Positions 28,219 to 56,139 of a stretch of DNA of 64,000 nt are shown piece by piece (within the stretch, counting starts at the first letter, position 1; each line of letters opens with the position of its first letter). The notes under the pieces are model-generated. The model saw nothing but the letters and a program-made list of their open reading frames with translations, had not been told where the DNA came from and ran no database searches. The stretch comes from Nitrospirota bacterium (GTDB taxonomy: Bacteria; Nitrospirota; UBA9217): NCBI GenBank assembly GCA_963754875.1, contig CAVWHO010000016.1:64001-128000 (forward strand), written 5' to 3'. A program made the position numbers and the translations under genes.

Positions 28219-31200
28219 ATGAACCATTATCGATTCGATGTCGCTATTATCGGGGCCGGACCTGCCGGAGTAGCTGCTGCAGGATCGCTCGCCGGCTCCG
28301 GTATAACCGTGGCTCTGGTTGAAGCTGGTGTGTACGCCGGGGCCGAAAACTGGTCCGGCTGCGTTTACTTCACGGAAAACCTCGCTGAAAAGGATTGTTT
28401 CGGCGCCGAAGCAATAGAGGCGGCCCCTTTTGAACGGCGTATTGCGCGCCGGGGCACTCTTATGCACAACGGGATCGACGTCATCGGCATCGAACTTACG
28501 AGTCTGGAGGCATTCAAGAACTGCTATACCGTTCTCCGCCCTGTCTTCGATCCCTATTTTGCTCATCTTGCCCGGGAGAAGGGCGCGGTCCACATCACCG
28601 GCACGACGGTGACCTCACTCATCAGGAAAGAAGGAAGGGTCGTCGGCGTCATGACGGATCGCGGTCCGCTTTATGCCGGCGTCGTTTTCCTGGCAGAGGG
28701 CGATGCTTCTCACCTTGTCCGGTCGGAGCAACTCGAGAACACCGCGCAGCCGCACTTTCTTCAGGGAGTGAAAGCCGTACTTTCGCTCGCGTCGGAGGAG
28801 ATCGAAAAACGGTTCAAACTCGATCCGGGCAAAGGCGCGGCCTACGAACTGCTCCTTCGGAACCCTTCCCTCTCCGGCAGGACCGCAAAACTGAACGTCG
28901 GCGGTTTCCTGTACACAAACCGGGACAGCCTTTCGATGGGCTACGTTGTCCCCCTCGACAATCTGCGGGACTATTACCGTGGCAGCCACGACATGCTCTT
29001 TGAATGGATGCGAGGCCTTCCGTATCTCCGGGAACTGACCGAGGGCGCGGCGCTATCGGCTTACGGCACGAAGATCATCAGAAGCGGTGGATGGCGCGAA
29101 CGGCCCGTGCTCGTTCAAAACGGCCTTGCAGTCGGTGGAGCATCAACGGGCCTCGGCGTGGACATTCCCTTCCCGAACTTCACCGGCCCTGCATCCGCAA
29201 CAGGACTCTATTTCGCGCGGGCAGTCAAAAATATTTTCAAACGAGGGGGCGCCTTTGATGCCAAAACACTGAGCCGGGAATATCTTGAGCCGCTCCTCGA
29301 AAGCGTACATGGGGAAAACTCCCGCTATCTTTCCGCGTGGCCGGGCTATTTCGGGAAATCGAACGTCCTCTTCAGCAGGACCGTGGACATGGCCTGCGGC
29401 AGCGTTCACTTCTTGTCAAAGAAAGATATTGTCGAAACAGGGCGGTTTCTCAGAAACCATGTCCTTTCCGTTCGGGGGATCAAGGAATCAATCGTTGACA
29501 CGATGCATGCAATCAGCGCGCTCAGGCTCTGGAGGCCCCTGGCAAAAACAGTGATCAATCCCCTGACGATCGGTCGCTGGTTCGCCAATCTTTTTAAAAG
29601 AGCGCCCGCCCCGGACCGGAAACTCGGCTTCATCATACAGATTGCCGGAAAAGAAAGGAACGCTGCGTCGCTGCCCTGGCCTACGGGCTCGCTTGTCAGA
29701 CGGCTCTCTCCTGCACTTGTCCTTGCGCTCGAACAGATCTATGCAAATGACAACCGGCCTGCAGAGAAAAAGTTTTCTCACGCTGTCCGGAGTCTTCTGC
29801 AGGGACTCAAGCTGACTGATTTCATAATCCTTCCCGCCTTTGGCTTCGTTCTCGTTTTCTTTGCGCTCGGAACTGCGCTCTGGGATGCCTTTCGTTTCTA
29901 TTTGCTCAAGACGCCTGTGGACAAGCTCCTTGCGGAACCGGTCATGGCGTACAATGAATCCCTAAGGAAAGCGCGTGATCTCGACGCAGTGAAACCCCGG
30001 CAGAGCCTGGAGGCGAAACTGGCGACGAACACCTACCATGTCGGGGACGCGTCGCACATCAGGACGCTCTGGCCCGAGGCTATCCCCGCCCATCCGGACA
30101 TGTCTCAGGCAGCGCTCTGGTGGCTATGCCCTGCGCGGGTCTACGTGTACGACGCTCCACTCGCAGGCCGCGGCAAGGTCACGGTAAACTTCGAGAACTG
30201 TATCAAGTGCGAATCCTGCTGGAGGGCGGAACCTCAACGCGTGCTCTGGGGGCGCCACACAGATCACAAGCTTATTTACCGGCCCGACAGCGCAGCGATA
30301 CCGGTTCTCCTGCATGCTCTTCGGGAAAATCTCCCTTCAAGAAAAGGGACGCATCCGGCGATTGCCCCCCTGGACGAAAAGCTCTGGTACCTGAACGAAG
30401 ACGTGCTGCAGCTTGGACAGGAGGCGTTCAATGCATCATCGGCTTTCATTGATGCCGTTGCAAAGCTGCCCGCTTCGTCCGACCGAGGCAGAAATGCCTG
30501 GCCGCTTTCGCTCGGGAAAAGACTGTCCGAAAAACTCTTGAAGCTCGAAGCCGCTTTCACGAACGACGGCAGATACGCGCAGGCTGAAATTATTCAGGTC
30601 GAAAGGAAAGACATCGAGCTCAAGCTTACGGAAGGAAGACTTCTCCATGCGCTCTATTGCTGCCGCAGGTTTGAGCAGGGCATTCTGTCGTGGGTGCGTG
30701 AGGATGATGGTTATACGATTCCCGCATCAACAGTGAAAAAATATGACCGCACCCTCTCTTACGAAGAAGTCTCCCGCATCTTCCCTGACCGGATCGTAAA
30801 ACAGTGGGAGGAAGAATTCATGCCCGATGCATGGGCAGAAACACTGCGGCAATTCATCCTCGAGCAGCGCGATAAACCGCTTGAGGCAATACGGGCGCTC
30901 TCCTCAGTGAACCCGGCCCTCGGACTGATTGCAGCGCACCAGCTTCTTGCCAATGAACTGCTCACGAAATCGAGTATCGAGCCTGGCCCGGGCATCTGCG
31001 CCGCAGCCGCCGACCATCTCGATATCGAAGAGGAGGGCAGCGGCAGCGTCCGCATAAAAGGCCCCCTGTCACTCGTCCCTATTGCGGCGAGCCGCACCCT
31101 GCTGCTCACGTCCGGTGGGAAAGGATACATTATCCCCCTTGCCGACGCGGGTGTTACGATCTCACACACGCCGACGATCGGGTTCAGGGCTGCGGGATTT

Positions 31201-34200
31201 GCCGATGTTTCGCTTGACGTGACCGTAACAACGTACGCTGTGCTATCGGCCGAAAGAACAGACATCCCTGAAGCTGCTTCCTACCTCGCCATCGCACTTG
31301 GAGCCGGCGACTACCTCTGCAAGAGGATAAAAGAACACGCTGCAGGAAGAGTTCAATTCCCGGGCCAGATGCTCGACACCGAGGGCAGGGATGGTATTGC
31401 GAAGCTCGGCGCAGTCAAGGCCATGATCGCCAGAACTGAAGCGTGGCGGCTCCTGCTTGAGAACCTTTACGACGTTTATGCCAAACCGGAAAGCCGAAAT
31501 CCGCAAACCGAAATGAATTTCTCCCTCATCTGCACTTCGCTCGCTGCCATGTCTTTCAGCCCGGAGCCGGGCGCCATGGGATACGATGCGGGCCAGGTCT
31601 TCGGCGGATTCGCGTACTCCGAAGACGACCTGCTCTCGCGGTTCTACCGGGACAGCGCTCTCTTCCGGTTCCTGGCGCCGGGATACGGCGCATCGACTAA
31701 GCTGCATGCCGCTCTCGTCTCCCTCAGTGATGACATCGTGTTTTCCGGCTTTGGCGACCTCGGAAAAATTCAAAATGCACCGCTCAGGGACTTCGTGCAC
31801 GGCCTTTCGGACGTTGAGAACAAATGCCGTACCCTGCCCGAAAAAGCAGATCCGGGTCTCACGGGTGAAGCGCAAGCCGTCATCATCGGCATTCGCAGGC
31901 TTCTCATCAGCATTGAAAACGGACTGAACCAGGGCAGGAGCACGGAACGAGAAGCTGCTGCCGCAGAAGTGCTCCTTGGTCTGGCGGAAGACGCGCTTCA
32001 GAAGGCCCGTCTCTCAACAGGACGCGGCCGCGTATCGCCCTTTGCTCTGTTCCCGGTGGAGCCCGGAGGTACGCCCGCCACGCTCGACAGGGACTATGAA
32101 TCCTTCTGCAGAGCGCCCGGCGCTCCGCATATATCGGGTAGCTTCCTCCTGTCTGCATTCGACCGGGCATTGCGTTTTGTCCCTGAAGTGCAGCTCCATG
32201 ACGCCCGCCTCCGAAACCGCTGGACCGAACTCACTGATTGGTTCAAACAGAACTGCCGCGACAAGAAATTCGAGGGACTTTTTATCGAACGGTATATCGA
32301 GAAAATCCACGGCCTTCCTGACGAGGTCATCGATGCCGTCAAGAACAATAAGTGGCTCGCCACGTACGTTCCGAAATCCGAGGACGGGCTCGGATGGCGC
32401 AAGGCTGAATATTACATCCTGAATTCCGCGGCAGGGAGCTTCGGTGACGCAGGCATCGATCTCCTCATCATGGCAAGCACGAGCATCGGCACAACACCCA
32501 TTCTCCTGGGACTCGAGGACGAGCTGCCGCGCGTGCGCCAGGAACTGGCGCCCCTGGCACAGGATGCAGGCATTCTGGGCGAGATCAACACAAAGCTTTC
32601 CAGGATCATCGGGATGTTCTCGAACCCCAACCCGTCCCTGATCAGGAAAGAATACGAAGCGCTGATAAAACTCGTGGACGTCCGGGTCCGCCGCACCCGA
32701 GTGGTCAAGTATCTGGCCGCAAATTTCCTGCGCGCTTTTTACAGCGCAGGCATTGCAGGCAGGCGCGGCGATTTCAGCGGGTTCACTGCAAACCTCAAAC
32801 ACGCAGGCGGCCTTTTCGAAAACATCATGCCCGATGTCCGTGCCGCCCTGGAAGAACTTCCTCGGCGCGAGCGATGCCATAAACTTTTCCTCCGTTATCT
32901 TGGCCACGGCGGCGTGAGCGCCTTTGCTCTTACTGAACCGACCGCGGGCTCGGACTCCGGCGGTGTCAAGACCACGGCGAAGTTAGAGACGATAAAACTC
33001 CTTCCCCGTGATGACGGAAGGTATGCTTTCCAGCTTGACGGGCAGAACGACAAAAGCGAGCGCTATTTGATCGACGCAGACAAGATTGCCTTTACCGATC
33101 GGGGTATCTCATATCAGACGCCGGACGGGCAGTCTGCGTTAATTCAATATGACCGCTATGATTATGCAACTGACCAGGGGACGAGATACTACCTGTACCA
33201 GGGGAACGTCTGCGAGTTCCATGACATCGGCCAGGTGCGAAAGACCAATGCCGGGCTTACGTATGAGTATTACAGCCTGACCGGTGCGAAGATGTGGATC
33301 ACGAACGGAAGCATCGCGACCCAATTTTCCCTTTTTGCCCAGACAAACGAAGGCGTCACAGGTTTCATGGTGGACCGGCACAGCGAAGGACTCAAGGTCG
33401 GGGCGGACGAAGAAAAAATGGGGCAGCGAGGCTCGCCTACGAACGAAATCTCGATCGACGCTGTGCGCGTTCCGCGCGAGGCCGTGATCGGCTACGAAGG
33501 CCACGGCCAGGTGAATGCCCTCGAAACGCTGAACGTCGGGCGCTGCGGTCTTTCCGTCGTGTCCGGCGCGCTCAGTCGCAAGCTGTTGGAAGAAGCACGC
33601 CGAAATATTCCCTCAACGCCGGAGCGGGACCGATTGCTCGGCGAAGCTGCAGCGATCATGTTCGGCAGCGAGTCCCTTGCCTACTACCTCGTAGGCCTAT
33701 TCGACCGGCCTCACGAGTCGGTCCGCATGGAGTCAGCAATTGCAAAATATGTCTGCTCCGACGATATCCATGAACTCATCTCGCTCGTCGAGTATGCCTA
33801 CGGCCCCTCCGGCCAGACGGAAAAGTTCCTGCTCGAAAAAGCGCGGCGCGATGCGCGCATCCTGACCATCTACGAAGGAACGAATGAAGTGCAGCGATTT
33901 TTGATCCTGAAGGACCTGATCGCCATGGCCCCAGCCTGGTCCGAGATACCCGTGCCGCAGGATGATCCCGCATCACGAACGCTTGCAGAATGGAAGAACA
34001 AGCTGAGAAACCAGGTGAAGGAAGCGGCCCGCTTGCTCGGCGATGCGTCGTGGTCCGACGCGATGCTCCAGCCCGCACTTTTCCCAATTGCCGATACGGC
34101 GGGTGAGGTCCTGCGGCTTGACTGCATATACTACCGCATGGAGTGGCTCGAACAGCAAAGAGCGGTCCTCGAACAGGGAGATCGGGACTACGTGCTCGAT

Positions 34201-36138
34201 CTCCTTGATGCCGGCAATCGCGCTGCAGAAAGGTCCCTCGCGCGGCTTGCTTATCTCGACAAAAAGTACTCCTCTGCCCTGGCGCTCCTCCGGGAAAACA
34301 ACACTATGCCCGAGGTACGCGCTGCGGATGCCGCCCTTGATGCTTTTGCGGAACACGAAAGGGTGGCTGGCCCTTCTCCCGGCAGCGTGCGGGCCCAACT
34401 GAACTGCCTCGTCATTGTCCGGCCCGTTGCCGAACTTTCTCCGCGCCCGAGGATCGCGGACAACGCGCTTCAGGAGATCCTGTGGCAACTTGATCCATGC
34501 GATCTTTCCGGTCTGGTCCAAATGCGGGAACTCAAACAAGCAAGCGATTCCAGCCTGACCATCGACGTGCTCATGCCCGGCGGCCCCGAGTTTGATCATC
34601 TTTTGAGAACAGCGGCAGGCGCCCGCGCAGACAACCTCCTTCGCCTTGCTGTCGATCCTGCGGCAGGTCCGGGATCTTACGTGAAGGCCGTGAAAGACCT
34701 CGAAGTGCTGAGACCATACGATCTCATCGTGATTGGTGCAGACTGCCTCGATGGCGACCGGAGTCTCGGCGCCTATTTGGCAGGATGTTTCAAGAAGAAC
34801 CTTTACCGCAGAGACCGAATCGAAGCCAAACCGGACGGGACCGGCTTGACCCGTGTCGTACTGCCGGCAGTGATCAGCATGACCTCGCCAGTGAAGGACA
34901 AGGGCTGCGACATGAAATCGGCCGTAGCCGCCGCCTTTTCGATTATACGGGTAATCGGGCCTTCGATGAATGAGCCATCGACCGAGCCCGGTCGTTACGA
35001 ACGAGTATCCGGGAAAGAAACCATTGCGCAGACTGTGACGGACACGGCTTCGGCAGCGGTCTATCTCAAGGAGTTTGCAGCTTCAGCGAGTGCTGCAGCT
35101 GCCGGAGAGTATGCCGGTCCGGTAAAGAAGGGAACGTTTGCGCAGGACAGTGCGGTCTGGGCTTTGCTCGGACCTCATGAGCAGAAATCCAACATCGCGG
35201 TGCTCCGTGCTGCACGGCTTGCTGCCGACCTTACTGGCAGGAAGGCGCGTGCCGTCATCCCCGCACCGAGAGGAATGTGGCCAGCTCTCCTCGGGCTTGC
35301 AAAAGCCCAGGGGTGTGAGCAGGCATTCTGTGTGGACACGCAGGACAATAGGTTGTCGAGTGAGGGAAAGCGAAAAATCGTCCGCGTTGTCCAAAAGACA
35401 GCGGACGAGACATTTCTCTGTGCAGGGCCGGAATGGACAGGCGCATTCGCCTACGCCGGCGGCGAGTCCGACAACCCCAAGTCGCCTGTCCTTCTCTGCT
35501 CCGGAGTTACGGGAATTGAAAAAGGAGGGACCGGCTCTCTCGCCTTTGCGCTTCAGTCCTATGAAGGTAAACTCGTCCGGCGTTTAGTGCAGAAACGCGG
35601 TTCTTCTTTCATCACCACTGTCCCTGAAGCAGATTTCCCTGTTGCTCCGGAAGCGTTGACGTTCGACGCCGCAGTCCTCGACTTTGCAATTGACCCCGAA
35701 TTACTCATGCCTTTGCCGCCCGTAGCAGCCCCAACGCTCTCGCAGGCGGACGTTATCATCGATCTCGGTTACGGTATCAAGGATAAGGCGGGGCGTGAAC
35801 TGGCGGAAAAACTCAGGACAAAACTCGAGGCACTGGGACTCGCACCGATGTTCGGCGCAACGCGCAAGGTGACGCAGGACTTGAAGCTCCTGCCGCTGGA
35901 CGCCCAGATCGGCCAGACGGGCATCCGCGTCAACCCGAAGCTCATCATTGCGCTCGGCATCTCGGGCGCGCCGCAGCATATCGACTACGTCGGCACACGC
36001 GCGGAGATTCTCTGCTTCAATAAAGACCCCGAGGCTCCGCTCATGAAGCTGAACCAGACGAGGCCTTCACCGCGCGTTCATCCCATCGTGGGTGATCTTT
36101 TCGTGACGGTGCGGGAGATCATCGCCAGGCTTTCGTAA
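28219..36138 (+). CDS. 2639-aa fusion: FixC/ETF-QO flavoprotein, FixX ferredoxin, ACAD, ACAD, EtfB, EtfA
   Basis: GAGPAG and GAENWSG (FixC); CPA...CIKCESC (FixX); RVQFPG and QVFGGFAY (ACAD 1); AFALTEPTAGSD, KMWITNG, KMGQRGS and IYEGTNEVQR (ACAD 2); LVIVRPV..LDPCD..DLIVIG (EtfB); QIGQTG and GISGAPQH..NKDPEAP (EtfA). TAAGGAG RBS. Confidence 0.9.
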   Translation: MNHYRFDVAIIGAGPAGVAAAGSLAGSGITVALVEAGVYAGAENWSGCVYFTENLAEKDCFGAEAIEAAPFERRIARRGTLMHNGIDVIGIELTSLEAFKNCYTVLRPVFDPYFAHLAREKGAVHITGTTVTSLIRKEGRVVGVMTDRGPLYAGVVFLAEGDASHLVRSEQLENTAQPHFLQGVKAVLSLASEEIEKRFKLDPGKGAAYELLLRNPSLSGRTAKLNVGGFLYTNRDSLSMGYVVPLDNLRDYYRGSHDMLFEWMRGLPYLRELTEGAALSAYGTKIIRSGGWRERPVLVQNGLAVGGASTGLGVDIPFPNFTGPASATGLYFARAVKNIFKRGGAFDAKTLSREYLEPLLESVHGENSRYLSAWPGYFGKSNVLFSRTVDMACGSVHFLSKKDIVETGRFLRNHVLSVRGIKESIVDTMHAISALRLWRPLAKTVINPLTIGRWFANLFKRAPAPDRKLGFIIQIAGKERNAASLPWPTGSLVRRLSPALVLALEQIYANDNRPAEKKFSHAVRSLLQGLKLTDFIILPAFGFVLVFFALGTALWDAFRFYLLKTPVDKLLAEPVMAYNESLRKARDLDAVKPRQSLEAKLATNTYHVGDASHIRTLWPEAIPAHPDMSQAALWWLCPARVYVYDAPLAGRGKVTVNFENCIKCESCWRAEPQRVLWGRHTDHKLIYRPDSAAIPVLLHALRENLPSRKGTHPAIAPLDEKLWYLNEDVLQLGQEAFNASSAFIDAVAKLPASSDRGRNAWPLSLGKRLSEKLLKLEAAFTNDGRYAQAEIIQVERKDIELKLTEGRLLHALYCCRRFEQGILSWVREDDGYTIPASTVKKYDRTLSYEEVSRIFPDRIVKQWEEEFMPDAWAETLRQFILEQRDKPLEAIRALSSVNPALGLIAAHQLLANELLTKSSIEPGPGICAAAADHLDIEEEGSGSVRIKGPLSLVPIAASRTLLLTSGGKGYIIPLADAGVTISHTPTIGFRAAGFADVSLDVTVTTYAVLSAERTDIPEAASYLAIALGAGDYLCKRIKEHAAGRVQFPGQMLDTEGRDGIAKLGAVKAMIARTEAWRLLLENLYDVYAKPESRNPQTEMNFSLICTSLAAMSFSPEPGAMGYDAGQVFGGFAYSEDDLLSRFYRDSALFRFLAPGYGASTKLHAALVSLSDDIVFSGFGDLGKIQNAPLRDFVHGLSDVENKCRTLPEKADPGLTGEAQAVIIGIRRLLISIENGLNQGRSTEREAAAAEVLLGLAEDALQKARLSTGRGRVSPFALFPVEPGGTPATLDRDYESFCRAPGAPHISGSFLLSAFDRALRFVPEVQLHDARLRNRWTELTDWFKQNCRDKKFEGLFIERYIEKIHGLPDEVIDAVKNNKWLATYVPKSEDGLGWRKAEYYILNSAAGSFGDAGIDLLIMASTSIGTTPILLGLEDELPRVRQELAPLAQDAGILGEINTKLSRIIGMFSNPNPSLIRKEYEALIKLVDVRVRRTRVVKYLAANFLRAFYSAGIAGRRGDFSGFTANLKHAGGLFENIMPDVRAALEELPRRERCHKLFLRYLGHGGVSAFALTEPTAGSDSGGVKTTAKLETIKLLPRDDGRYAFQLDGQNDKSERYLIDADKIAFTDRGISYQTPDGQSALIQYDRYDYATDQGTRYYLYQGNVCEFHDIGQVRKTNAGLTYEYYSLTGAKMWITNGSIATQFSLFAQTNEGVTGFMVDRHSEGLKVGADEEKMGQRGSPTNEISIDAVRVPREAVIGYEGHGQVNALETLNVGRCGLSVVSGALSRKLLEEARRNIPSTPERDRLLGEAAAIMFGSESLAYYLVGLFDRPHESVRMESAIAKYVCSDDIHELISLVEYAYGPSGQTEKFLLEKARRDARILTIYEGTNEVQRFLILKDLIAMAPAWSEIPVPQDDPASRTLAEWKNKLRNQVKEAARLLGDASWSDAMLQPALFPIADTAGEVLRLDCIYYRMEWLEQQRAVLEQGDRDYVLDLLDAGNRAAERSLARLAYLDKKYSSALALLRENNTMPEVRAADAALDAFAEHERVAGPSPGSVRAQLNCLVIVRPVAELSPRPRIADNALQEILWQLDPCDLSGLVQMRELKQASDSSLTIDVLMPGGPEFDHLLRTAAGARADNLLRLAVDPAAGPGSYVKAVKDLEVLRPYDLIVIGADCLDGDRSLGAYLAGCFKKNLYRRDRIEAKPDGTGLTRVVLPAVISMTSPVKDKGCDMKSAVAAAFSIIRVIGPSMNEPSTEPGRYERVSGKETIAQTVTDTASAAVYLKEFAASASAAAAGEYAGPVKKGTFAQDSAVWALLGPHEQKSNIAVLRAARLAADLTGRKARAVIPAPRGMWPALLGLAKAQGCEQAFCVDTQDNRLSSEGKRKIVRVVQKTADETFLCAGPEWTGAFAYAGGESDNPKSPVLLCSGVTGIEKGGTGSLAFALQSYEGKLVRRLVQKRGSSFITTVPEADFPVAPEALTFDAAVLDFAIDPELLMPLPPVAAPTLSQADVIIDLGYGIKDKAGRELAEKLRTKLEALGLAPMFGATRKVTQDLKLLPLDAQIGQTGIRVNPKLIIALGISGAPQHIDYVGTRAEILCFNKDPEAPLMKLNQTRPSPRVHPIVGDLFVTVREIIARLS

Positions 36139-36510: not shown

Positions 36511-37161
36511 CTACTGCCCCCCGCGCACAGGCCATACATAGAAATATCTGGTCTTATTGAGGTATTTCATGTTGCCCCAGACCATGTCGACGGCCCATGC
36601 CATGGCTGCATCGTTGGTATACGAGGTAGACGACCAATAGAAGTCGCTGGCCCGTACATTGGTGAATCCCTGGCTATTCAGCCATTCGGCGGTATTGGTC
36701 TGAGCGTTGTTAACAAGGCTTCCTATCTCCTTGAAGTTCGGCAAGCGCCAGTCATTATGTCCCAGGTATTTTTCAGCATTCAGTTTTGCCACATAATCAA
36801 GGGCATGCTGCCATGTAACCGCTCCGACGAATGTCTGGCTTTCTTTCCAATTAGGATCTCTTGTCTGCATAAGATTGCCGTTGGGCGCCCAGACAAGCCC
36901 CGTTAGATTGTCGGTAACCGTGGTATCAGCGTTTGCGGTAAACCGCTGAGTCGGCCAGGCAGCGCCTTTTTGCAGTTCTCCATCCTGCCCTGTATTCGTA
37001 CAGGATATGACGTTGCCTGAGCTGTCATAACAAGTCGTCTGGCCGGTCTTGGGAAGTCTGATTGCGGTATCCTTACTTCCACCATTGCCTACACTGACAA
37101 TACCCGTCACTATAATAACCGGCAATAATGCCGCAAACCAAAAGCCCTGTCGTACTTTCAT
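36511..37161 (-). CDS. DUF1566 (Lcl C-terminal) domain secreted protein
   Basis: LPKTGQTTCY, TVTDNLTGLVW, DWRLPN, YWSSTS and VWPVRGG. Confidence 0.88.
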   Translation of the reverse strand: MKVRQGFWFAALLPVIIVTGIVSVGNGGSKDTAIRLPKTGQTTCYDSSGNVISCTNTGQDGELQKGAAWPTQRFTANADTTVTDNLTGLVWAPNGNLMQTRDPNWKESQTFVGAVTWQHALDYVAKLNAEKYLGHNDWRLPNFKEIGSLVNNAQTNTAEWLNSQGFTNVRASDFYWSSTSYTNDAAMAWAVDMVWGNMKYLNKTRYFYVWPVRGGQ

Positions 37162-37217: not shown

Positions 37218-37406
37218 TCATCGTATTTCCGTCTTGAAAAGCCAGCCCTGCGTCAACGTTATCAAAGCGGGCAGATACAGTATCGTCATTAAAGCGCTTA
37301 ACAGCATCATGCTGACGATGAAAGCGCCCACCGTAATATAGGTGTAGACCTGGCACAGTTCGTCATGGACGCACATGATCGACACATTTTTTACTATTTT
37401 GGTCAT
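37218..37406 (-). pseudogene. Chimeric remnant: possible DsrE-like N-terminus joined to an MMPL/RND-like last TM helix
   Basis: AAGGAG RBS, MTKIVKNVSIMCVHDELCQVY, then YITVGAFIVSMMLLSALMTILYLPALITL. Confidence 0.45.
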
Positions 37407-37746
37407 AGTGTTTCTCCTTATACATGCCAAGTTCTTTTCTCCCTGTAACCGGAGCATCACCAAAAAGCTGTTCCAGGCCATCCTGCATCAGGCTGCATGC
37501 CTGACAAATTTTCTTGTTGGCGATTCCATAATAAACATTCGTGCCTTCTCTTCTTGTCGTGACGATGCGCTCCATGCGCATGAGGGCCAGGTGCTGCAAC
37601 GAATTCGCCTTTGAAACTCCGAGTTTTTCGGTGATCTCGCCGGCAGTCAGTTCGCCTTCTCTAAGCAGGCAGAGTATCTCAAGCCTCGTGGGATTGGGAA
37701 ATATCTTGCAAAAATCAGCGTGCAGCTTCAATATCTCTTTCTTCAT
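37363..37746 (-). CDS. ArsR/SmtB-family repressor, possibly persulfide-sensing
   Basis: NPTRLEILCLLR, LTAGEI, QHLALMR and RREGTNVYY. The ATG overlaps the sqr stop codon (ATGA). Confidence 0.85.
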   Translation of the reverse strand: MKKEILKLHADFCKIFPNPTRLEILCLLREGELTAGEITEKLGVSKANSLQHLALMRMERIVTTRREGTNVYYGIANKKICQACSLMQDGLEQLFGDAPVTGRKELGMYKEKHYDQNSKKCVDHVRP

Positions 37747-38245
37747 GGCAGATTGCTGAACCCCCTCTTCATCTTCCAGAGGAAGTATTTCTCGAACCGG
37801 ACCTTCATCCACTTCGCCCAGATGGTCTTCTTCGAATAGGAACTCTGGCGCGGCGGAAGCACGGGATAGGCCTTCATGTATGCGGCTGTGTTTCCCATGT
37901 CCATGAGACAAACCACGCCGATTTCCGACGGAGGAGGCGGGGTCTTCCCGGTGATGCCGGCAGCGATAGTTGCCGCGGCAATCTTCGCCATCTTCACCGT
38001 CATAAATCCGGTCTTGGGAACGCCCCGTCGGCACCGGCGTCGCCTCCGGCGGTGCGATGGCCATGGTAACGCCGATGGCAAAAATATTTTTAAATTTCGT
38101 GTGACGATAGTTCTTGTCAACCGGGATGAACCCGCGGGGATTTCCCAACGGCATGACGGCAGGCACGCCTTTGAACGGCGGCGCGATCATGGCGAGTTTG
38201 AAGGGTAGCTTTGTGCCGTCCTTGAGTTTGATTTCTCCGGGCGTC
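37743..38245 (-). pseudogene. sqr: 5'-truncated sulfide:quinone oxidoreductase (C-terminal part), with a frameshift near 38025
   Basis: PPFKGV, GFIPVD, NIFAIGV, TPVPTG|VPKTG, VCLMDMG and KVRFEKYFLWK; the N-terminal FAD domain is absent. Confidence 0.85.
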
Positions 38246-38413
38246 TTACGCCCGATTGCAGGGCCGGCGGGAGATCTTTTCCCACGTATCCCCGTCCACC
38301 TCATTAATATACTCTTTGATCGAAAAAACTTTGCCGCACGACGTGCAGCGGAAGGTGATTGTTTTTCAGCCGATGCGGAGTTCGACTTCTTTGCCGCAGA
38401 TCTTACACTTCAT
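38246..38413 (-). CDS. Small dual-CxxC probable selenoprotein (55 aa, in-frame TGA at codon 16)
   Basis: GAGG RBS; MKCKICGKEVELRIG-U-KTITFRCTSCGKVFSIKEYINEVDGDTWEKISRRPCNRA*; SECIS-like hairpin downstream of the TGA. Confidence 0.8.
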
Positions 38414-38532
38414 AAAAACCTCGACAAAGAACAGGTGTCAGCAGCCAGAATCCAGTAGTCAGGAGAACACGCCGACAATAATCGCAACCAAGCTTCTGGA
38501 TTCCAACTTCTGGCTCCTGCATACTGCGGCTC

Positions 38533-40305
38533 TTATTCCACCACATCCAGCTTGATCGACAGTTCTTTGAGCTGGGCCTGAGTCACGCGTGACGGCGCCT
38601 CGGTCATGACGCAGACGGCCTTTTGTGTTTTGGGGAAGGCAATCACGTCTCGGATCGACTGCGCGCCCGTAAGGATCGCCGTGATCCGATCGAGACCGAA
38701 GGCCAAGCCGCCGTGGGGCGGTGCGCCGTATTCGAGCGCTTCGAGCAGGAACCCGAACTTTTTCCTTGCATCTTCTTCTGCAATGTTCAGCAGGCCGAAC
38801 ATCTGTGACTGGACCTCCGACCGGTGGATACGGATGCTGCCGCCGCCGATCTCCGAGCCGTTCAACACGATATCATAGGCCTTGGCCCGTACCTTGAGCG
38901 GATCGGTTTTCATGAATTCGAAGTCTTCGTCCTTCGGCGCGGTAAAAGGATGGTGCATGGCGTCGTACCGCTTTTCATCGGCGTTCCATTCCACGAGCGG
39001 GAAGTCGGTGACCCAGAGGAAGTCCAGTTTGCTTTCGTCAATGAGGCCCAAGCGCTTAGCCACGAGCAGCCGCAGATAGCCCAGCGTCTCGGCAACAATC
39101 TTGGGGCTGTCGGCGATGAACATCATGAGGTCGCCGGGCTTTGCAGCAAGCCGCTCGGCCATGGATTTGACCTGGCCGTCTTTGAAAAATTTGGCGATCG
39201 GCGACTCAAACCCCGATGCGGTCACTTTGATCCAGGCAAGTCCTTTTGCTCCGAATACCTTTGCCTCATTCGTGAGGTCGTCCACTTCCTTGCGCGAAAG
39301 ACCGGCCATGCCGGGAGCGGCAAACCCCTTTACCTTGCCGCCGAGTTCCACGGCCTGAAGAAAGACCTTGAAGGCGGAAGCCTTGGCAATGTCGGAGATG
39401 TCCTTGAGTTCCAGCCCGAAACGCGTGTCCGGCTTGTCTGAGCCGTAGCGGTCCATGGCCACGTGATAGGGAAGACGTGGGAACGGCACGGCGATCTCGA
39501 TGCCTTTCACCTGCCGGACAACTTCAGCAACGAGCTTTTCCATGAGCGCAATGACATCGTCTTCGTCGATGAACGACATCTCAAGATCGATCTGCGTAAA
39601 CTCGGGCTGCCGGTCCGCGCGAAGGTCCTCATCGCGGAAGCACTTGACGATCTGGTAATAACGTTCGAAGCCGGCCACCATCAGGATCTGCTTGAAGAGC
39701 TGGGGCGACTGCGGAAGCGCGAAGAACATGCCGGGATTCACCCTGCTCGGAACAAGATAGTCCCGGGCGCCTTCGGGCGTGCTCTTCGTGAGGAAGGGTG
39801 TTTCGATGTCTACGAAGCCGTTGCTGTCGAGGAAGCGCCTCACGGTCTGGGTGATCTGATGGCGCGTGATCAGGACCTTTTGCAGGCTCGGCCGCCGCAA
39901 GTCAAGATAGCGGTACTTGAGCCTCAGCATCTCTGCGACATCTGTTTCGTCTTCGATCATGAAAGGAGGTGTCTTTGCCTGATTCAGGACCGTCAAATCG
40001 GTCACGAGCACTTCGATCTCGCCGGTCGGGAGCTTGGAGTTCACGGTATTGCCCGGCCGGGGCGCAACAGCGCCCGTGACAGCGATCACGTATTCGCTCC
40101 TGATATCATGGGCCAAAGCATGGGCATTCGATGCCGTTTCGGGGTTGAAGACCACTTGCGTGATGCCGCCCCGGTCCCTAAGGTCCACGAAGATGAGTCC
40201 GCCGTGGTCTCGTCTCGTGTGCACCCATCCCATGAGCGTCACGACAGCAGCCACGTCTTTTTTTGTCAGTTCACCGCAGGTATGCGTTTTTTTTTGTGCT
40301 TTCAC
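38533..40305 (-). CDS. aspS: Aspartate--tRNA ligase, probably non-discriminating
   Basis: [32 protein letters not shown] and GAPPHGG. GTG start at 40305 after GAGGGG. Confidence 0.96.
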
Positions 40306-40455
40306 GGGCCTGATTCCCCTCTTTCGTCGTTTCAAAAACAGGCTGGATAATAGCATCTCATACAGCACAAAGTCAAGCGCCCAATGCAGGGGAACAGCGC
40401 CACGCGCCCCTGAAATCGCTGTCTGTCTTGAACGGGTTATGCTATAGTAAAAGAC

Positions 40456-41290
40456 ATGTCCGCCCGGATTGTCGCACTCGTGCTTGCATTCTTGCTCCAC
40501 GGTTCTGCGGGGCAGTCCCATTCCCAGCCAAAGTCCCTTATACTGAAGCTCGACTATATAGCGGAAAAGACGGACTTAAAATAGCGGTCCCTCCCACGGT
40601 CGGGGAAATGCCGAAACTCGGTCTCGCGCTGGCTGGCGGCGGAGCAAAGGCCGCTGCATCGACCGAGGGACTGAAGGTCCTGGACAAAGAAGGTATCCCC
40701 GTGTCCTTCATTGCGGGGACAAGCATGAGTGCGGGCCCGTCGACACTTGAGACACGCGTGTCTGACCCCACTCCGGTATTCTTGTCAAGGGGTCCTACGA
40801 GATGGCGCAGCCCGGCTGTGGGAGCACCAATGCCTTTACGAAAGCATCAGTGTATGCTCAAGGGAACCTGCCGCTGGGAGATCGGCATACGATCATCATG
40901 GAAGGCTCCGGCAGGGTCGGCAGCGGCGAACTGCCGTACCAGGAAAAGTTCGGGATCGGCGGGGCAGACTATCTATTGGGATTTCCTCTCATGGGATACC
41001 AGCGCAGGGAATTCGTAGGTGCCGATGAGCTGAGGTTCTCGCTGTCCTACCGGTGGAAGATCAAGGACTACCAGCTCAAGGCCGTGAAGGCCCTCTGCCT
41101 GAACGTTGCCTGACAAGAGGCAAGTGTCTGGAACAGCAGGAGCTCGATGTCGTCCGGTAATTTGTGGAACGGGGTCGGCATCGGCCTGCACGCAGATACC
41201 ATTATCGGGCCCGTTAAGCTCGATTACGCAGTCGGGGGACACGACCGTTACGCGGTCTATTTTTCAGCGGGATTCGATTTTTTGAAAGGG
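40456..41290 (+). pseudogene. Internally deleted patatin plus Omp85/BamA-barrel gene (PlpD-like)
   Basis: Signal-like start; LGLALAGGGAKA and IAGTSM (patatin); then barrel strands ending GPVKLDY..YFSAGFDF. Frameshifts and an internal TGA at 41111. Confidence 0.75.
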
Positions 41291-41919: not shown

Positions 41920-42237
41920 TCAGCCGCCCTTCAATCTATGGAAAAGACAGGCGTACAGCTGGAAGTTCGATCCCTCTTCTTCTCGTACCTTTAAATAAAA
42001 ATCACATTGCTCGCAATGCTCGAACTTCATACCGCACATTCCCTGGACCTTGCCGCTGCACAAGGTGCCCGCGATCATCCAGCAGGCTCTTCCACTGTTT
42101 TTCCCGCCGTGCACGCCATTCAGACGGGTATCCGTCGTTGCCGGGCAAACGCCCGACACGGCGGCGCGTTCACCACCGGGTTCCCTTCCACAACCCTTCA
42201 ATTCCCAGCAATTCAATTTTGTTATGACATCGTCCAC
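41920..42237 (-). CDS. Two-CW-motif Cys-rich protein
   Basis: NCWE..CGR..CP..GRACW..AGTLC..C..CDF. Confidence 0.85.
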   Translation of the reverse strand: MDDVITKLNCWELKGCGREPGGERAAVSGVCPATTDTRLNGVHGGKNSGRACWMIAGTLCSGKVQGMCGMKFEHCEQCDFYLKVREEEGSNFQLYACLFHRLKGG

Positions 42238-42278: not shown

Positions 42279-42641
42279 CTATTTCTTGGGCTTCTCCTGG
42301 GGAGTGGCCGGAGCTATTGATGGAAATTTTTGTTTTTCAAGGCACCGCTCTATCCCGAGACGCGTGACCGAAAAACCCAAGGCTGAGGGTTCTTCTTCCT
42401 GTTTCACTCGTGTCATGAATTCACAGCGCCAGCAATTATGTAATTTCTGCGCATAGGTGCCTTCAATTTTTCCGCCGCACAGGGATCCCGCCACGACCCA
42501 GCATGCCCTTCCTGCGTTCTGGCCGCCGTGGGCGCCGCCCAAGTCCTGAGATGTGGACACCGGGCAGATGCCGAGTTCTTGCGCTTTATGGCCGCCAGGC
42601 TGACGTCCGCAATTCTTGAATTCCCAGCAATTCTTTTTCAT
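42279..42641 (-). CDS. Two-CW-motif Cys-rich protein (paralogue of 41920-42237)
   Basis: NCWEFKNCGR..CP..GRACWVVAGSLC..CWRCEF; AGGAGG RBS. Confidence 0.85.
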   Translation of the reverse strand: MKKNCWEFKNCGRQPGGHKAQELGICPVSTSQDLGGAHGGQNAGRACWVVAGSLCGGKIEGTYAQKLHNCWRCEFMTRVKQEEEPSALGFSVTRLGIERCLEKQKFPSIAPATPQEKPKK

Positions 42642-56063: not shown

Positions 56064-56139
56064 GGCGGTGTAGCTCAGCTGGTAGAGCAGGGGAATCATA
56101 ATCCCTGTGTCCGGGGTTCGAGTCCCTGCACCGCCACCA
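56064..56139 (+). tRNA. tRNA with CAT anticodon, most likely elongator tRNA-Met
   Basis: GGCGGTG/CACCGCC acceptor stem, TAGCTCAG D-arm, ATCATAA anticodon loop, GGTTCGAGT T-loop, encoded CCA. The paired 1-72 position argues against an initiator tRNA. Confidence 0.95.

Follow-up and report, generated by a model that had tools for sequence, protein, structure and literature searches.

A predicted selenoprotein of the small dual-CxxC family, with a hairpin in the codons of its second CxxC motif, in a Nitrospirota bacterium

We analyzed a 64,000-nucleotide stretch of a Nitrospirota genome (the window), in which a short minus-strand gene follows aspS (Table 1). The gene starts with an ATG at 38413, runs through 15 sense codons up to an in-frame TGA at 38368-38366 and continues for 39 codons between this TGA and a TAA at 38248-38246. 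With the TGA read as selenocysteine (Sec), the predicted peptide has 55 residues, comprising C3xxC6, U16, C23xxC26 and the tail RRPCNRA. The gene is present as a single copy in the host genome and lies, co-oriented, 119 nt past the aspS stop; its Shine-Dalgarno-like motif has counterparts in many orthologs, not all. The features that the earlier note had read from the letters, namely GAGG, ATG, TGA, TAA, the peptide, the hairpin position and the co-orientation with aspS, proved correct in every detail. The gap between aspS and the gene (window 38532-38423) also holds an imperfect palindromic element that recurs as partial copies at other sites of the genome, including one (39 bp, 87%, E 1.4e-6) in the selA-selB gap on contig C20. 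Elsewhere in the window, we noted a gene with an Lcl C-terminal domain at 36511-37161 (-), two tandem small Cys-rich ORFs at 41920-42237 (-) and 42279-42641 (-) that share the start N-C-W-E-x-K-x-C-G-R, and a tRNA-Met gene at 56064-56139 (+).

Table 1 Features of the dual-CxxC locus, in window coordinates
Feature	Position	Strand	Basis
Dual-CxxC selenoprotein CDS (NF041197), predicted, 55 aa, stop codon included	38246..38413	-	Sequence, genome matches, family score
Shine-Dalgarno-like GAGG, 5 nt (all T) 5' of the ATG	38419..38422	-	Sequence
In-frame UGA, codon 16, probably read as Sec	38366..38368	-	TGA in 30/30 closest loci; Cys codons in 16 other orthologs
Putative bacterial SECIS hairpin, 7-bp stem, GUC loop, in codons 22-27 encoding the second CxxC	38333..38349	-	Folding, codon freeze, covariation
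aspS ORF (longest-ORF start), upstream neighbour	38533..40521	-	Synteny limited to host family
SQR-like flavoprotein 3' remnant, startless, frameshifted, begins at the selenoprotein stop	37743..38244	-	Comparison with relatives
ArsR/SmtB-family regulator, start overlaps the stop of the remnant	37363..37746	-	Family match

The resemblance to the small dual-CxxC (seleno)proteins that the earlier note had pointed out was borne out by its score of 58.4 bits against NCBIfam NF041197, for which the curated cut-off is 40, over model positions 1-52 of 53. This model (NF041197.2, CxxC_Se_CxxC, "dual CXXC motif small (seleno)protein", an equivalog) describes two CxxC motifs flanking a single Sec or Cys within 55-70 aa, which is the layout found here in 55 aa. 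The likeness extends over CxxC-x9-U/C-x6-CxxC and a conserved [D/N]-R C-terminus, and nothing that defines the family differs. Both Cys forms from Nitrospirota also exceed the cut-off, and NCBI gives Cys-type homologs the name of the family. The branches are nonetheless distinguishable: the Nitrospirota sequences have I-G-U, versus RxU in the table of a 2026 review (PMC13188914), together with a W-E helix and an R-P-C-N-R-A tail, whereas the Desulfovibrio-type branch mostly ends in V-P-M-D-R-I and carries Cys.

According to the same table, NF041197 corresponds both to OS_HP3 and to "hypothetical protein DW", an equation that we take from the table and not from a sequence comparison. OS_HP3 was described in 2007 from two genes with a predicted SECIS (Zhang and Gladyshev, PMC1976440), and protein DW is a deep-Sep prediction (PMC12013277). 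The tables conflict over SMF39960.1, which is OS_HP3 in PMC9312934 and protein DW in PMC13188914. In the passages of PMC13188914, PMC1976440, PMC12013277 and PMC9312934 drawn on here, no function is given for the family. The gene is thus a member of a catalogued family, predicted since 2007, and not a discovery. A Pfam search returned no family at its cut-off; HypA scored 11.9 against a cut-off of 28.9 in Pfam and 13.6 against 125 in NCBIfam, and LysW scored 13.8 against 75. As weak evidence on domain architecture, we found no fused forms among 7998 scored proteins of 127-2000 aa.

The host genome encodes the complete Sec machinery that the earlier note had proposed to look for: selA (profile score 515.6 bits), selB (wing domain, 77.4 bits), selC as a tRNA-Sec(UCA), and selD, which itself contains a TGA. 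Among 61 related genomes, 33 gave a match to the protein, each with one in-frame TGA, and codon 16 was TGA in all 30 of the closest loci fetched. A sample of 301 genomes across the phylum yielded 128 matches to the family model, of which 119 passed its cut-off; setting aside weak partial matches within long ORFs in two genomes (G041 and G050) leaves 126 gene-bearing genomes, 124 with the in-frame TGA and two (G269 and G285) with TGC. The position of the TGA was checked directly in 63 distinct genes. The counts leave out G041, G050, a short divergent second copy (L069), weak partial hits (L104 and L136-L138) and duplicate sequences. Cysteine codons occupy the same site in a further 14 Desulfovibrio-type loci (TGC or TGT). 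At the protein level, 95 of 104 database homologs have a residue at position 16, which is Cys in 94 and Trp in one (P0011), and the other nine are fragments beginning after the TGA. The alternation of TGA and Cys that the earlier note had proposed to look for is therefore present, alongside the machinery to decode it, and neither of the two outcomes that the note had named as refuting (Trp, Arg or Gly at this position in homologues, or a genome without Sec machinery) came about. Across 77 aligned rows, position 16 is Cys or Sec without exception, while C3 and C6 are only nearly invariant, so U16 is likely to be the working residue. Additional copies occur in two assemblies: one (G214) has three copies of the gene, and another (G129) has a second TGA copy (the above-mentioned L069, on G129:C1) that is short and divergent, has no C-terminal tail and lies just after an Mrp/NUBPL gene.

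Bacteria insert Sec when SelB-GTP-Sec-tRNA(Sec) binds a SECIS hairpin. The candidate hairpin of the gene consists of a 5' arm at 38349-38343, a GUC loop at 38342-38340 and a 3' arm at 38339-38333; it starts 16 nt past the UGA, and its loop G is separated from the UGA by 23 nt. The bacterial model summarized in the legend of Fig. 2 of PMC13188914 specifies a 3-9-nt loop, a 4-16-bp stem, G in the first two loop positions, a distance of 16-37 nt from the UGA and a minimum free energy of -7.5 kcal/mol or lower; with a 3-nt loop, 7 bp, G first, 23 nt and -10.7 kcal/mol, the hairpin agrees with every number in that legend. The energy refers to a hand-picked 31-nt piece (z -2.07, 9/200 shuffles equally good). 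The bare 17-nt hairpin folds at -9.2 kcal/mol, a 69-nt piece starting at the UGA gave z -0.27 with 69/200 shuffles equally good, and 2.1% of 5000 synonymous codon redraws produced seven pairs plus the loop G. On the host sequence alone, the hairpin is only modestly unusual, and the comparative evidence is the strong part.

In the 30 closest genes, the codons that form the hairpin are frozen (CGC 29/30, TGC 30/30, ACG 29/30, a variable loop codon, TGC 30/30 and GGC 28/30), whereas the equally conserved Arg50 and Arg54 use six and five codons, respectively, and Cys3 and Cys6 use both of theirs. The hairpin is too invariant for covariation to be visible among these 30 sequences alone; it appears only with 63. 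Across the 63 TGA genes, 96.6% of 441 cells pair and 12 cells are altered on both sides; the inner pair changes from C-G to U-A in nine genes, and the innermost pair is broken in 10. None of 500 shuffles reached the observed pairing, two-sided changes or covariation score, in a control that ignores relatedness. A folding energy of -5 kcal/mol or lower for the 17-nt hairpin was obtained in 61 of the 63 TGA genes (mean -8.2) and in none of the 16 Cys genes (mean -1.7). This contrast is partly confounded, since 14 of the 16 belong to the Desulfovibrio-type clade, in which the hairpin region encodes other residues. The stable stem has likewise been lost from the two Nitrospirota Cys genes, and a TGA-containing member of the Desulfovibrio-type clade (L134/L135, near-identical) retains the hairpin. 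These comparisons indicate that selection maintains the hairpin and that its presence goes along with the TGA; given its frozen codons, compensatory changes and agreement with the published model, the SECIS call made in the earlier note is supported.

The same data bear on an alternative in which translation truly ends at the TGA, or the hairpin acts as an intrinsic terminator, and the long frame is a pseudogene or a chance ORF. Such a view draws on a consensus scan, which marks the hairpin plus AAAGTTTTTT as terminator-like, and on public gene calls in close relatives, which contain only 31-38-aa post-TGA pieces. However, the sequence before and after the TGA is conserved as a single frame in 126 genomes, the TGA itself gives way to Cys codons at exactly that site, and the T run is absent from most orthologs while the stem and the loop G remain. 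The comparative data thus refute both the terminator and the stop, which we consider very improbable, and the 55-codon gene after aspS is a genuine gene. Reading of the TGA as Trp (genetic code 4) or as another standard residue is even less credible: its one favourable observation is the Trp of P0011, probably produced by a gene caller that applied table 4 to a 659-bp contig, and it is ruled out by the many orthologs that terminate with TGA, by a host tRNA set with tRNA-Sec(UCA) and a normal tRNA-Trp(CCA), and by Cys in 94 of 95 homologs. Judged from sequence comparison, UGA16 is almost certainly decoded as Sec, and we regard the selenoprotein call and the family call, taken together, as very nearly certain.

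We then compared gene neighborhoods. Of 30 close loci, 27 have aspS upstream of the gene, as opposed to none of the 25 genomes examined outside the host family; co-orientation downstream of aspS, as the earlier note described it, therefore stands, whereas a conserved partnership does not. A functional tie to aspS was rejected, as the adjacency is local synteny and the gene has other neighbours beyond the host family. Outside that family, a PF03692 CxxCxxCC gene follows directly 3' in 7 of 25 genomes (six of them with only 1.5-kb flanks), often joined by YacP-like NYN and PAP2 genes; PF03692 is absent from host-family loci. The flanking genes in Desulfovibrio-type loci encode an outer-membrane efflux protein on one side and an SLT transglycosylase on the other. 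There is thus no universal partner gene, and the neighbours vary by lineage. In several relatives, long ORFs converge on the gene that resemble a 2639-aa ORF of the window at 28219-36138 (+), in which FAD oxidoreductase, ferredoxin-like, acyl-CoA dehydrogenase-like and electron-transfer flavoprotein-like parts can be made out by eye.

Downstream of the gene, 20 host-family loci with at least 4 kb of sequence (two from one assembly) contain ArsR in 10 cases, a DsrE/F/H-like gene in six and selD in three. A TGA-containing selD lies 0.8-3.8 kb downstream in L089, L092, L095 and L097, three of which come from one assembly. In some relatives, the gene is followed by a selenium/sulfur (Se/S)-relay cluster that encodes a TsoC-like selenoprotein (NF045708, 45.1 versus 45 bits), a TGA-containing DsrE, TauE and an SQR-like flavoprotein. 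Of this cluster, the window retains only the SQR 3' remnant and ArsR, and the SQR-like fragment is a leftover of it. The remnant is part of a 633-bp duplication at 98% identity, which covers the 3' half of the SQR-like gene and the start of the ArsR gene and is shared between window 38244-37612 (-) and positions 232903-233534 of contig C20 of the host assembly (G000:C20:232903-233534). Near 38023, the window copy is frameshifted by one base, a change not shared by two public contigs; an assembly error as the origin of the remnant is ruled out by contigs from two studies that join the gene to it. On contig C20, intact genes for ArsR, a TsoC-like protein (TGA), DsrE (TGA), DsrF, DsrH and the SQR-like flavoprotein lie together between transposase-like genes (L105, G000:C20:229500-236500). 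That relatives have this cluster downstream of the dual-CxxC gene suggests that it moved in the host genome.

The distribution of the gene provides a second view of its context. In the 301-genome sample, selA is present in 119 of the 126 gene-bearing genomes; put the other way, the gene occurs in 119 of 147 selA-positive and 7 of 154 selA-negative genomes. The seven selA-negative carriers are 63-98% complete, and four of the five tested have a TGA-containing selD or a tRNA-Sec (selD in four, tRNA-Sec over the cut-off in two). In the 28 selA-positive genomes without a match, the gene was not found with a 77-row profile either. The host carries dsrA above the cut-off, and among selA-positive genomes that are at least 90% complete, the gene occurs in 103 of 120 with dsrA and two of six without it (hand-tabulated). 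Three selA-positive genomes within gene-bearing families (G025, G039 and G150, 99-100% complete) are without dsrA, dsrB, aprA and the dual-CxxC gene alike, and the gene was found in none of the 12 genomes of family f3, which mostly have dsrA and are without selA. Exceptions run in both directions: 17 genomes with selA and dsrA gave no dual-CxxC gene even on deeper search, one genome (G285) combines the gene with aprA and no dsrAB that we could find, and in another (G111, 94% complete, 180 contigs) the gene is present while dsrAB and aprA are both missing. A DsrD search was uninformative, giving no match in any genome nor in the control. Named hosts of homologs are Pseudodesulfovibrio, Desulfovibrio and Bilophila, in a search seeded with such sequences. 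The distribution follows selA plus dsrA, with exceptions; the events are few and kin are not independent, making this a lead and not a result. Together with the Se/S-relay cluster downstream in some relatives, it is one of two leads that point weakly to sulfur chemistry.

Two AlphaFold2 models of medium confidence (pLDDT 69.6 and 67.1, pTM 0.42 and 0.36) predicted three strands (residues 9-14, 19-23 and 29-31) and one helix (41-48); in both, U16 falls in the turn that connects the two long strands. A deeper alignment did not improve the model. The layout is, at this medium confidence, that of a Cys4 zinc ribbon, in agreement with the earlier idea of a zinc ribbon presenting Sec on its hairpin. 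In zinc ribbons, such a turn points away from the metal. Foldseek found nothing at E 0.001 or better (best E 0.31), and VIA-align gave a best Z of 3.3 with no significant match; the weak fold matches are generic ribbons, many of them from polymerase and ribosome. As judged on the models, these searches show neither a new fold nor a close relative. The best natural sequence match in the PDB was the HypA zinc domain (E 3.1e-4, profile positions 18-51). Generic Cys4 ribbons, including the HypA zinc domain, the LysW carrier, Rpo12/RpoP and ZifS, resemble the dual-CxxC protein in having two CxxC knuckles on what is predicted here to be a short beta ribbon and show a weak likeness in sequence and fold, but all fall below their cut-offs and none has a conserved Sec or Cys in the hairpin turn. 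The C-terminal Glu to which LysW attaches its cargo is absent from the dual-CxxC protein.

What the protein does can be approached from these features. A structural zinc ribbon that presents a reactive Sec for redox chemistry or for sulfur/selenium transfer is a role to which we would give a little less than an even chance. In this mechanism, C3, C6, C23 and C26 would bind a structural Zn, U16 would be kept at a distance from the metal, in the turn that links beta2 to beta3, and the acidic helix with the conserved C-terminal [D/N]-R-x would dock on a partner, while the Sec would alternate between the selenol form and an adduct of the selenenylsulfide or persulfide-like kind. A resolving cysteine would not be required, given that residue 52, a Cys in 24 of 30 close orthologs, is mostly Met among Cys-type homologs (74 of 104 rows).

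A different use of the same residues, which we consider unlikely, is metal handling, with the Sec and the cysteines forming a small metal carrier or metallochaperone partner (a HypA-like zinc domain or a rubredoxin-like Fe site) in which U16 is an extra ligand. The HypA zinc domain as the best real-protein match in solved structures is consistent with this idea, as are the PF03692 gene in 7 of 25 genomes and the divergent short copy after an Mrp/NUBPL gene, but the match to HypA is confined to one knuckle and a helix and is of the degree seen among generic zinc ribbons, the PF03692 neighbour is absent from host-family loci, and in the models U16 is predicted to lie in an inter-strand turn, away from the CxxC pairs. 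Equally doubtful is a housekeeping role, in which the ribbon would bind RNA, the ribosome or RNA polymerase and the Sec would act as a redox switch. Single copies in nearly all gene-bearing genomes, aspS next to the gene in most close loci and hisS, an asnS-like or a YacP-like NYN gene in some others, and polymerase and ribosome ribbons among the many weak fold matches would fit this role. Those matches are, however, non-significant and reflect the abundance of such ribbons in the PDB, and the gene was not found in 28 of 147 selA-positive and 147 of 154 selA-negative genomes, indicating that it is not essential.

Taken as a whole, our reading of the locus is in our view somewhat likelier to be right than wrong: a gene of a known family with UGA16 as Sec, whose product, predicted to be a zinc ribbon, likely employs its exposed Sec for redox chemistry or for carrying sulfur/selenium within the sulfur metabolism of sulfate-reducing anaerobes. 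This reading can be sharpened, at a strength that we would call speculative, into the proposal that this family acts as an accessory, so far overlooked, in dissimilatory sulfur metabolism, serving as a minimal Sec/Cys sulfur carrier or as a redox partner of the Apr/Dsr pathway or the DsrEFH relay, and missed because gene callers cut the gene at the UGA.

For the annotation of these genomes, the finding corrects a gene that is near-universal in Sec-using Nitrospirota (119 of 147 selA-positive genomes) and that public calls in close relatives render only as fragments. It also offers an example of an apparent SECIS element that shares its nucleotides with the codons of a CxxC motif and disappears upon reversion from Sec to Cys. 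The importance of the gene would grow if the proposed connection with dissimilatory sulfur metabolism proved true, and Cys-type orthologs in cultured Pseudodesulfovibrio and Desulfovibrio make this connection directly testable.
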